Assembly (NCBI RefSeq): GCF_056712565.1
Contig: NZ_CM160072.1
Length of the DNA stretch: 64,000 nucleotides
Direction: 5' to 3' (one strand)
The translations under genes and the position numbers were made by a program. Below are positions 20,391-60,600 of this stretch, piece after piece (positions within the stretch are counted from its first letter, which is position 1; each line of letters opens with the position of its first letter). The notes beneath the pieces are model-generated. The model had not been told where the DNA came from and made no database searches. It was given only the letters and a program-made list of their open reading frames with translations.

Positions 20391-21428
20391 ATGTTTTCCG
20401 CATTGCGCCACCGTACCGCTGCCCTGGCGCTCGGCGTATGCTTTATTCTCCCCGTACACGCCTCGTCACCTAAACCTGGCGATTTTGCTAATACCCAGGC
20501 ACGACATATTGCTACTTTCTTTCCGGGACGCATGACCGGAACTCCTGCAGAAATGTTATCTGCCGATTATATTCGCCAACAGTTTCAGCAAATGGGTTAT
20601 CGCAGTGATGTTCGGACATTTAATAGTCGGTATATTTATACCGCCCGCGATAATCGCAAGAGCTGGCATAACGTGACGGGAAGTACGGTGATTGCCGCTC
20701 ATGAAGGCAAAGCGCCGCAGCAGATCATCATTATGGCGCATCTGGATACTTACGCCCCGCTGAGCGATGCTGACGCCGATGCCAATCTCGGCGGGCTAAC
20801 GTTACAAGGAATGGATGATAACGCCGCAGGTTTAGGTGTCATGCTGGAACTGGCTGAACACCTGAAAAATACGCCTACCGAGTATGGTATTCGATTTGTG
20901 GCGACCAGCGGCGAAGAGGAAGGAAAATTAGGCGCTGAGAATTTACTCAAGCGGATGAGTGACACCGAAAAGAAAAATACGCTGCTGGTGATTAATCTCG
21001 ATAACTTAATTGTTGGCGATAAGCTGTATTTCAACAGTGGCGTAAACACACCTGAAGCAGTAAGGAAATTAACGCGCGACCGGGCGCTGGCAATTGCCCG
21101 CAGCCATGGAATTGCCGCCACCACAAATCCAGGTTTGAATAAAAACTATCCGAAAGGCACCGGGTGTTGTAATGACGCAGAAATATTCGACAAAGCCGGT
21201 ATTGCTGTACTTTCGGTGGAAGCGACTAACTGGAATCTTGGCAATAAGGATGGTTATCAGCAACGCGCAAAAACAGCCGCATTCCCTGCGGGAAATAGCT
21301 GGCATGACGTAAGACTGGATAATCAACAGCATATTGATAAGGCACTTCCTGGAAGAATAGAACGTCGCTGCCGTGATGTTATGCGGATAATGCTACCGTT
21401 GGTGAAGGAGCTGGCGAAGGCATCTTAA
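20391..21428 (+). CDS. iap: Alkaline phosphatase isozyme conversion aminopeptidase
   Basis: 345-aa ORF with signal peptide and M28-peptidase-like core; divergent from cysD as in E. coli. Confidence 0.9.
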   Translation: MFSALRHRTAALALGVCFILPVHASSPKPGDFANTQARHIATFFPGRMTGTPAEMLSADYIRQQFQQMGYRSDVRTFNSRYIYTARDNRKSWHNVTGSTVIAAHEGKAPQQIIIMAHLDTYAPLSDADADANLGGLTLQGMDDNAAGLGVMLELAEHLKNTPTEYGIRFVATSGEEEGKLGAENLLKRMSDTEKKNTLLVINLDNLIVGDKLYFNSGVNTPEAVRKLTRDRALAIARSHGIAATTNPGLNKNYPKGTGCCNDAEIFDKAGIAVLSVEATNWNLGNKDGYQQRAKTAAFPAGNSWHDVRLDNQQHIDKALPGRIERRCRDVMRIMLPLVKELAKAS

Positions 21429-21552
21429 TGGGTTTGAAATGATTACTCCCTTGCCTGCAGGAAATCAATGCCACCAGAAACAGAGTATAAAAAAGGGTGC
21501 AGGAGACCAAACCATCACAATTCAGTACGCGGGGTTTTACCCCGCGTGGTGG

Positions 21553-21705
21553 CTACTTCTTCGATTCGTAAGCGAGAACTGCCTTAAACTCCATACCACG
21601 TTCTCTGATACTCAACTCACACAACGAGTCGCCTACCATCAACGTGAATCCCAGTACTGTACAACACAGTACGATGATTGCCACAAGGGCATATTTTGTC
21701 AGCAT
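21553..21705 (-). CDS. Hok/Gef-family type I toxin (small membrane peptide), HokE-like
   Basis: Translated by hand from the minus strand: [50 protein letters not shown] (50 aa, ATG to TAG). Hok-family hallmarks: N-terminal TM helix, conserved SLCE motif and C-terminal AYE(S/P)K. GGGAGG Shine-Dalgarno 7 nt upstream. Below the 60-aa cutoff, so absent from the track. Confidence 0.8.
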
Positions 21706-21969
21706 GTCTTGCCTCCCTGCAAAGAAGAGACTAACATCCGAATTGCTTAGGTTCGAACGTAGGCCTCAGGTTGATAGAAATATCGCCTGGGGCTTTTGTC
21801 CATCTGGAACCTCGCGAATGCTTAACGCCAGACAGCCTCAAGCACCCAATGCCATTCTATACCTGTTAATTCTCCCTGCGACGTTCTCGTTTAAATGCCG
21901 GAATGCTGCTCGCAAAATAAAAACGCCCCCATCATTTCTGACAGAGGCGTTTAATTTATCCGGCAATAT

Positions 21970-22704
21970 TTACCCTTCGTGTAATCCACATTCCCTTTTT
22001 AAGCCAAAGAAACGCGTTTCTTCTTCCGCCATGCCGGGTTCCCATTTACGGGTTGTATGGGTATCGCCCACCGATAAATATCCTTCATCCCATAATGGGT
22101 GATATTTCAGGCCATGTTTTTGCAGGTACTGATAAATAGTTCGGTTATCCCAGTCGATAATCGGCAGCACTTTAAATACGCCACGCTGAATTGCCAGCAC
22201 CGGTAAATTGGCGCGGCTGCCGGATTGTTCACGGCGCAGGCCAGCAAACCAGGTTTGCACATTCAGTTCTTTCAGCGCCCGGTTCATCGGTTCGACTTTG
22301 TTGATGTCATTGTACTTTTCAATGCCTTCAACGCCCTGCTCCCACAGTTTGCCGTAGCGTGCTTCCTGCCAGGCGGCGCTTTCGGTAGCACGGTACACTT
22401 TCAGGTTGAGCTTGAGTTTATCCGTTAACTCGTCAATAAAGCGGTAGGTTTCCGGGAACAGATAGCCGGTATCGGTGAGGATCACTGGAATATCCGGGCG
22501 AATCTGATTCACCAGATGCAGACTCACCGCCGCCTGAATGCCAAAGCTGGAAGAAAGTACATATTCACCGGGCAGATTATCCAGCGCCCAGGCTACGCGG
22601 CCTTCAGCGTCCAGTTTTTCCAGTTGGGCGTTAGTTTCCGCCAGCGCCAGAATCCGGTCTACCTTTGGCAGTTCGTTCAGGGCGTTTAGATCGAGTTTGG
22701 ACAT
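21970..22704 (-). CDS. cysH: Phosphoadenosine phosphosulfate (PAPS) reductase
   Basis: Start placed at [23 protein letters not shown]... (244 aa); C-terminal ECGLH motif; followed by cysI and cysJ. Confidence 0.93.
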
Positions 22705-46833: not shown

Positions 46834-47169
46834 CTACCCAATCAGCACGTTAATTTTGGCTTTAATGAGTTGTAATTCCTCTGGGGCAACTGTTCCTTTC
46901 TTCGTTGCTCCTCTTGCCCGCCAGGCGATACTTTTTACCTGATCAGCTAACGCTACGCCATCACGTTCCTGACCGGATAGAACAACTTCGAACGGATATC
47001 CTTTTGATTGCGTTGTACAAGGAACACACAGACACATACCTGTTTTGTTGTTGTACATGAACGGACTCAGGACAACAGCCGGACGATGTCCGGCTTGCTC
47101 GCTACCTTTTGTCGGGTCAAAATCAACCCAAATCAGATCGCCCGTATCGGGTACGTATCGGCTTACCAT
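46834..47169 (-). CDS. mazF: Type II toxin MazF (mRNA interferase)
   Basis: 111-aa [66 protein letters not shown] sequence (here [14 protein letters not shown]...). Confidence 0.9.
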   Translation of the reverse strand: MVSRYVPDTGDLIWVDFDPTKGSEQAGHRPAVVLSPFMYNNKTGMCLCVPCTTQSKGYPFEVVLSGQERDGVALADQVKSIAWRARGATKKGTVAPEELQLIKAKINVLIG

Positions 47170-47417
47170 TACCAGACTTCCTTATCTTTCGGCTCCCCCC
47201 AGTCGATATTCTCGTGGAGGTTTTCCGGCGTGATGTCGTTGACCAGTTCAGCAAGCGTAAATACGGGCTCTTTACGCACTGGCTCAATAATTAATTTGCC
47301 ATCCACCAGGTCAATCTTCACTTCATCATCAATATTCAGATTGAGCGCCTGCATTAACGTAGCCGGGATCCGCACCGCCGGTGAATTTCCCCAACGCTTT
47401 ACGCTACTGTGGATCAT
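47169..47417 (-). CDS. mazE: Type II antitoxin MazE
   Basis: 82-aa [50 protein letters not shown]...; stop overlaps mazF start. Confidence 0.9.
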
Positions 47418-60231: not shown

Positions 60232-60600
60232 AATAAAAAAAGGGAGCACTGTATTCACAGTGCTCCCGGTTCGTTTCGCAGCATTCCGGCTACTTTTGTT
60301 GCTCCCTGCTCATCCTTGACAACTTTTCCTCTGGCCTTGCGGCCAATCGTTCATCCTGAACTATTGCTTCCTGCTCACACCACCCCGATGTGATACTTCA
60401 TCCTGAAGTGTTCCTGGCCTTCCTGACCCACCGAATCATCCTGACCGGTTCTCATTCTCCATCCTGGAGGTGTCCTTTAACGCGTCCTGCGTCATCCTCT
60501 TCGCTTCATCCAGAAGCCTTTCCCTGAAACACCATCCTGGTGTGTCCTTCAGAAGTGTCATCATCCTGATGTTCACTTCGTTGTCTGACTCCCTGTCGAC
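60232..60600 (-). ncRNA. csrB: CsrB small RNA (CsrA-sequestering)
   Basis: 369-nt span on the minus strand carrying about 20 CAGGA(U/A)G / AGGA motifs (seen as catcctg repeats on the + strand), 5' end GTCGACAGGGAGTCAGAC, and a 3' terminator hairpin (gggagcactgtattcacagtgctccc) followed by a U-tract. The length equals that of K-12 csrB. Confidence 0.88.

Follow-up and report, generated by a model that had tools for sequence, protein, structure and literature searches.

A structurally complete copy of the chromosomal hokX/sokX locus beside cysH in Escherichia coli

Described hok/sok systems and the cysH-iap locus

The hok/sok (parB) system of plasmid R1 combines a hok mRNA that carries the elements tac and fbi, a Sok target hairpin, an anti-SD/SD hairpin (SD, Shine-Dalgarno sequence) and a GC hairpin past the stop codon with a cis-antisense Sok RNA whose −35 box overlaps the hok SD (PMC9841398). 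A third component, mok, is a 70-codon ORF out of frame with hok equipped with an SD of its own and starting at an AUG within the Sok target; its translation is required only up to the hok SD and start, and mutations of its start codon abolish toxicity (PMC9841398). The locus described here shares the RNA elements of R1, whereas the mok AUG is missing, and the plasmid-stabilisation role of R1 hok/sok is not applicable to a chromosomal copy.

On the E. coli chromosome, the locus between cysH and iap has been named hokX/sokX (PMC7232551), and 90% of urinary isolates carry hok and sokX beside cysH, the rest having sokX alone, as in K-12 (PMC12736100). According to the preprint bioRxiv 10.1101/2025.08.07.668861, Pedersen & Gerdes (1999) reported that chromosomal hokA, hokB and hokC neither mediated post-segregational killing nor became activated by rifampicin. 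The same preprint reports that HokE is toxic on expression, and that hokB, hokC, hokD and hokE need A-to-I editing by TadA of a Tyr codon in a TACG motif, which supplies the second disulfide Cys (bioRxiv 10.1101/2025.08.07.668861).

The window analysed here is a stretch of 64,000 nucleotides, in which positions 21488..21860 very probably form a chromosomal type I toxin-antitoxin module, hokX/sokX, with an overall mechanism of the hok/sok type. The module is flanked by cysH, cysI and cysJ on one side and by iap on the other, and cysH lies immediately upstream of hok in every genome examined. Because an identical protein is already annotated and a cysH-adjacent locus is in the literature, this is a known locus, and it is an ordinary member of its kind that is structurally complete here. 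The same locus lies beside cysH in E. coli B, in K-12 (sokX, b4701), in O157:H7 (HokG) and in the AIEC strain NRG857c ('hok-5'), where the HokX protein is identical or 98% identical and the Sok region is homologous to the annotated sokX. Searches of the literature under the names hokG, mokE and mokX returned unrelated papers only.

A 561-nt query comprising the cysH end, the leader, hok and the 3′ region matched 5425 of 5426 complete E. coli genomes, and at least 80% of the query was covered next to cysH in 4145 of the 5426, with RefSeq annotating a 'Hok/Gef family protein' at the locus position in the covered genomes. In strain FDAARGOS_536 the region is 100% identical and WP_000956458.1 is annotated. 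Approximately 20% of complete E. coli genomes are without hok altogether, and others have IS186/IS421 in the hairpin that follows the gene. The copy in the window is complete, in contrast to E. coli B, where IS421/IS186 in the GC hairpin has removed fbi, and to K-12, where everything from the hok ATG onward is lost and sokX only is left. In K-12-type genomes the homology to hokX stops exactly at the G of the hok ATG (position 21703 of the window; K-12 piece L004, 1180..1470), the whole toxin ORF is gone, and the leader and sokX remain beside cas3.

In this strain hokX abuts iap because the CRISPR-Cas I-E region is absent: the interval 21429..21488, from the iap stop to the 3′ end of the hok mRNA, is a gap of approximately 60 nt that holds no CRISPR array and no type I-E cas operon. 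This iap/hok junction is common to 1123 of the 5426 complete genomes. In other strains cas3 comes after hokX, in either orientation, and WP_000956458.1 is also present in strains where cas3, not iap, follows hok. On the other side, an intrinsic terminator of cysH (21921..21952, minus strand; 14-bp stem and U-tract) separates cysH transcription from the hok promoter, and a weak, sub-threshold Rfam match to ctRNA_p42d is a chance resemblance explained by this terminator. Elsewhere in the window, the CsrB small RNA gene lies at 60232..60591 (minus strand; full-length Rfam match, 382 bits), and a mazE/mazF-like pair of 82 and 111 aa at 46834..47417 (minus strand), between mazG-like and relA-like ORFs, is presumably a second toxin-antitoxin module.

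The HokX toxin and its gene

The hokX (hokG) ORF occupies 21553..21705 on the minus strand and encodes 50 aa from an ATG start, followed by a stop codon. It was recovered by an ORF listing with a 20-aa cut-off, and was missing from the default list only because 50 aa is below the default of 60 aa. A sequence-only reading of the window had described the ORF as an overlooked Hok-family gene, preceded by a GGGAGG SD and put at about 80% identity to HokE. Translation confirmed the ORF, and the family assignment is supported by a significant match to Pfam HOK_GEF (PF01848; E=6.3e-10), in which residues 5-46 of the peptide align with the full model (1-42), and by the 112-bit Rfam match to the leader (see below). 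The conserved Cys of the LCE motif is present as Cys29 within SLCE, the SD lies at 21712..21717 (minus strand), 6 nt 5′ of the ATG, and identity to HokE of K-12 and NRG857c is exactly 40/50, or 80%. The other E. coli paralogues are more distant, with 24/50 (48%) identity for HokA and 19/50 for both HokC and HokD. The implied novelty did not survive, as the identical protein is both RefSeq WP_000956458.1 ('Hok/Gef family protein') and the Swiss-Prot entry 'Putative protein HokG' (HOKG_ECO57), and is therefore already annotated and named. An exact protein look-up found the sequence on at least 1000 contigs, and the peptide is identical across distant E. coli lineages.

With only 50 aa, under default ORF thresholds, the frame could be read as a chance small ORF or a pseudogene fragment and no gene at all. 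This reading is refuted by the Pfam and Rfam matches, by the occurrence of the identical curated protein on at least 1000 contigs and by purifying selection; the complete set of flanking regulatory elements also speaks against it, and its probability is close to nil.

HokX is a paralogue of HokE, and some sources label the identical protein 'protein HokE'; orthology to HokE, which is encoded at the ybdK-entD locus, is ruled out by the identity of only 80% together with the different location. Membership of the HokA or PRK09738 subfamilies is also ruled out, since the peptide scored 53 bits against the NCBIfam HokA equivalog NF007290 (cut-off 89) and 39.5 bits against the Hok subfamily NF007279 (PRK09738; cut-off 73). 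A plasmid-type hok was rejected because the plasmid Hok relatives found by tblastn are distant (approximately 40-43% identity), and tblastn against phage sequences gave no match to the peptide. Klebsiella and Enterobacter have hokX-type loci, annotated as HokE or Hok/Gef and often as 67-aa proteins, whose Hok is 84-92% identical; their genomic contexts differ from the one here, for example beside mutS or between TehB-like and AraC-type genes, and they are sometimes in tandem. Tandem hokX-type modules were seen in Enterobacter (L016, 1023..1175 and 1501..1653; L017, 1501..1653 and 1979..2131), and hokE of NRG857c is likewise a tandem of whole hok/sok modules (L007, 502..654 and 1006..1158). Between such copies, small leader indels change the frames of upstream ORFs.

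Comparison of hok with its relatives in other genera gave dN/dS values of 0.08-0.28, and the Hok peptide is therefore under purifying selection. The gene also contains a TACG motif at 21567..21570 (minus strand), formed by the TAC codon of Tyr46 and the G of the GAA codon of Glu47 (both codons, 21565..21570). Given this TAC GAA context and the presence of Cys29, an editing site for TadA is expected at hokX by analogy with the other chromosomal hok genes; once the A at 21569 is edited, codon 46 would read as Cys in place of Tyr and so supply the partner for Cys29. In EHEC EDL933, RNA-seq and ribosome-footprint reads have been reported on the Rfam sok_15/sokX feature (PMC5331693), a weak indication of transcription of the locus in a strain other than this one. 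The chances that the Hok toxin is actually made in vivo appear to be even.

Fold of the hok mRNA and placement of Sok

The full-length hok mRNA would be approximately 360 nt (21488..21847, minus strand), with its ends placed by homology. The 5′ end (21847) was set at the start of the Rfam model and of a conserved GGGTGCTTGAGG / GGGTGC motif found in 17 loci, and the 3′ end (approximately 21488) at the fbi element with the U-tract after GCACCC and at the end of inter-strain homology, 21488 being the last position at which this CRISPR-less strain is homologous to strains with cas3. A putative promoter has a −10 box TAGAAT at 21854..21859, 6 nt upstream of the presumed +1 and below the threshold of a consensus scan, and a poor −35 box GTCGCA at 21877..21882, both on the minus strand. 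The leader itself (21690..21847, minus strand) matches the full length of Rfam RF01794 ('sok') with 112 bits against a gathering threshold of 59 (E=6e-26).

In the minimum free energy (MFE) fold of the 360-nt RNA, nt 1-6 are paired with nt 348-353, and nt 9-14 with nt 340-345, which is the predicted closure of the 5′-terminal tac element GGGUGCUUGAGGCU (21834..21847, minus strand) with the fold-back inhibition element fbi, GGUCUCCUGCACCC (21495..21508, minus strand). When the last 45 nt were shuffled, closure (at least 8 of the first 14 nt paired with the tail) was seen in 2/150 sequences, and the native fold had an energy of −133.2 kcal/mol compared with −119.5 ± 2.9 kcal/mol for the shuffled tails; the closure is therefore no folding artefact. 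Further downstream in the leader, an anti-SD UCUUCUUU (21721..21728, minus strand) is predicted to pair with the hok SD region, nt 120-127 pairing with nt 133-141 in the MFE fold (consensus helix columns 162-165/171-174).

Related loci were drawn from NRG857c (hokA, hokC, hokD and two hokE copies), two plasmids, and the hokX-type loci of Enterobacter, Klebsiella, Citrobacter, Scandinavium and Superficieibacter. The fold survey covered loci with the 5′ motif, to the exclusion of NRG857c hokB and two plasmid loci, and the hokX of E. albertii, which is ended by the contig end, was left out of the leader analysis. Each of the other 16 intact chromosomal loci folded has nt 1 paired, in its MFE structure, with a site 56-62 nt past the hok stop; the corresponding distance in the two plasmid loci is 65 nt. 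The closure is lost in E. coli B hokX with its IS421/IS186 insertion. RNAalifold of the 17-locus alignment predicted the closure along with the inner tac stem and both the Sok-target and the anti-SD/SD hairpins, with compensatory changes in 18 of 47 pairs, including pairs of the leader helices. When the mRNA was truncated at its 3′ end, the tac-ucb hairpin of the Rfam model was not the MFE structure, being 5.6 kcal/mol less stable (−110.1 versus −115.7 kcal/mol), and refolding after processing is therefore without computational support.

A GC hairpin (GCGGGGTAAAACCCCGC / GCGGGGUAAAACCCCGC; 21529..21545, minus strand) begins 7 nt past the stop codon, where the sequence-only reading had placed it, and is conserved in all 17 loci. 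The mRNA does not end at this hairpin, which by analogy with R1 is likely an internal stop or stabiliser for 3′ exonucleolytic processing; fbi is located on its 3′ side. IS elements have entered at the GGGG-N-CCCC sequence of the hairpin, IS421/IS186 in hokX of E. coli B and IS186B in hokE of K-12 (L006, approximately 3455; L005, approximately 1508), and an insertion at this point removes fbi. An IncHI2 plasmid hok has an IS421-family transposase gene approximately 190 nt downstream. No IS element is present at the hokX/sokX locus of the window; the ORF is whole, and the tac/fbi closure and predicted promoter and terminator of Sok are all present, in agreement with the initial description of the locus as intact.

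The Sok RNA, which had not been pinned down by eye, was located by aligning the window with K-12 sokX (b4701; 59 nt, on the strand opposite to cysH). By this homology, Sok (SokX) is predicted to be an antisense RNA of approximately 59 nt at 21745..21803 (plus strand), preceded by a probable promoter with a −35 box TTGCCT (21709..21714), a 17-nt spacer and a −10 box TAACAT (21732..21737), the position of which relative to the start of K-12 sokX matches. As in R1, the −35 box overlaps the complement of the hok SD. The promoters of hok and Sok both escaped a consensus promoter and terminator scan of 21400..22000, because each matches only 7-8 of 12 consensus positions (8/12 for Sok), and homology was used to place them. 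The only terminator that the scan returned is that of cysH. The predicted Sok RNA folds into a 5′ single-stranded tail and a long terminator-like hairpin followed by UUUUG (−23.3 kcal/mol, z = −3.1). Judged from the sequence, the locus thus has a predicted cis-antisense Sok, with a predicted promoter and terminator of its own and complementarity to the leader that precedes hok. The Sok-target loop contains a YUNR U-turn (CUAA in the window), which the alleles do not all share.

Rfam RF01794, described as 'sok antitoxin', marks the hok-sense strand over 157 nt, whereas K-12 sokX is 59 nt and lies on the opposite strand. Pipelines that copy Rfam matches consequently assign 'sok' to the wrong strand and give it an incorrect length, an example being the EHEC table of PMC5331693.

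Loss of the mok start and translation of hok

A start codon that is in frame with hok and has GAGG ahead of it occurs at a distance of 51-60 nt from the hok ATG, on its upstream side, in hokA, hokC and hokD, in the plasmid loci and in hokX-type loci of Klebsiella and Enterobacter. The GAGG, the SD of an ancestral mok, is retained in the window at 21764..21767 (minus strand), inside the Sok-complementary region, but the triplet 7 nt further downstream (21754..21756), where mok would be expected to start, is TCG and not ATG. The comparison took in seven E. coli hokX alleles, those of the window, KTa005, B and K-12 plus three of greater divergence, and a canonical mok start (ATG, GTG or TTG, in frame, at or near −51) was absent from all seven. 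Six of the seven have no in-frame start before the stop codon upstream of hok, and the remaining allele (L028) has only a TTG, 135 nt upstream. The hokX-type loci of Klebsiella and Enterobacter have the same leader, upstream frame, hairpin and fbi, and differ from E. coli hokX by an in-frame mok ATG with a GAGG SD 51 nt before the hok ATG. The closest paralogue of the locus, hokE/sokE (ybdK-entD), is similar in leader, Sok hairpin, GC hairpin and IS186 target, and is also without the mok ATG at −51. The absence of a canonical mok start codon from E. coli hokX and hokE is the only mildly novel point of this analysis.

The sequence-only reading had pointed to a 12-codon ORF that overlaps the start of hok and could play a mok-like part. 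This upstream ORF (uORF) is present at 21699..21737 on the minus strand (ATGTTAGTC...TGCTGA, i.e. ATG TTA GTC ... TGC TGA; overlap with hok, ATGCTGA), is identical in 7/7 E. coli alleles, and is the only ORF that crosses the hok SD and start in E. coli hokX. Codons 4-6 of the uORF make up the anti-SD, its stop is 4 nt past the hok AUG, and the Sok-complementary region ends 8 nt upstream of its AUG and approximately 28 nt from the hok SD. Covering the anti-SD/SD and lying near the Sok target, the uORF is placed as a substitute for mok would need to be, and, with the canonical mok start lost in the E. coli alleles, it is the sole candidate coupling ORF, or mini-mok. Another ORF, which begins with the ATG at leader nt 45, does not qualify as a conserved mok, since it has 34 codons in E. 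coli B-type alleles, is closed by a TAA here, and shifts frame between the two hokE copies. That the uORF is a mok-like coupling frame is plausible but unproven, at odds slightly short of even; the wider proposal, that the hokX (and hokE) lineage of E. coli lost the mok start and shifted coupling to a minimal 12-codon leader ORF, is more doubtful.

Several properties of the uORF are consistent with its being a by-product, hok being read from its own strong SD after processing of the mRNA, without coupling, and Sok acting only through RNase III decay. No SD can be recognised for the uORF, its AUG arises as the complement of the Sok −10 box (TAACAT to ATGTTA), and its stop is fixed by the Leu2-Thr3 codons of Hok (CTG-ACA, giving TGA), a stop that four of the six Leu codons would keep. 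It is also found in the related loci in Klebsiella, Enterobacter and Citrobacter, some of which have a canonical mok, so that it is no specific replacement; in Scandinavium it stops before the SD, and in hokE and Superficieibacter it runs into hok as an in-frame fusion. The fusion in hokE results from a 4-nt difference before the hok ATG that puts the upstream ATG in frame and gives a 62-codon, N-terminally extended form and not a 12-codon uORF. However, the hok SD and AUG are partly paired with the anti-SD inside the uORF, the arrangement that makes coupling necessary in R1, and the Sok target ends approximately 28 nt short of the hok SD, so that Sok would need an intermediary ORF to repress hok translation directly. 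Translation of hok without coupling is considered improbable, at about one chance in four.

The lost mok start (ATG to TCG) also allows the reading that the locus is disarmed and that Hok never reaches harmful levels, the locus being a neutral or slowly decaying relic or, as in K-12, a source of Sok only. The canonical start is absent in the seven E. coli alleles and kept in Klebsiella and Enterobacter, the R1 mutations described above show what loss of a mok start does to toxicity, chromosomal hok loci tested earlier did not kill (preprint summary, bioRxiv 10.1101/2025.08.07.668861), and about a fifth of complete genomes are without hok, with others interrupted by IS186/IS421 in the hairpin. 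Against this stand the dN/dS of Hok and its identical peptide across distant E. coli lineages, the retention of the tac/fbi, SD and Sok elements, and the 12-codon uORF, which satisfies the positional requirement for mok in R1. The recurrent inactivation by IS elements or deletion in some lineages itself suggests a cost, i.e. activity, of the intact form. On balance a disarmed locus seems unlikely, somewhat less so than translation of hok without coupling.

The preferred reading remains a module of the hok/sok type, the identity and overall mechanism of which are held to be very probable; the following steps are proposed by analogy with plasmid R1. The weak promoter would yield the hok mRNA of approximately 360 nt, in which pairing of the 5′ tac with the 3′ fbi would keep the transcript untranslatable and refractory to Sok. 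Slow 3′ trimming to the GC hairpin would remove fbi and allow the leader to refold. In the refolded mRNA, translation of a short upstream frame would open the anti-SD/SD hairpin and let ribosomes reach the hok AUG; in E. coli hokX the coupling frame would most probably be the 12-codon uORF, which is favoured because the ancestral mok AUG has been lost. The constitutive, unstable 59-nt Sok would pair with the leader just upstream of the uORF, block initiation and trigger cleavage of the duplex, so that the 50-aa membrane toxin would be made only if Sok runs out. Full toxicity may in addition need editing of Tyr46 to Cys by TadA.

If coupling through the uORF is true, a single 6-nt stretch would serve as both the antitoxin promoter and the start of the coupling ORF of the toxin, a distinct variant of hok regulation. 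The main value of the analysis lies in correct annotation, hokX being a known and widespread chromosomal hok paralogue. The absent mok AUG in hokX and hokE raises a small, testable question, namely how and whether these copies are translated, and the hokX/sokX of this strain, complete here, unlike those of K-12 and B, offers a suitable background in which to test the activity of a chromosomal hok.
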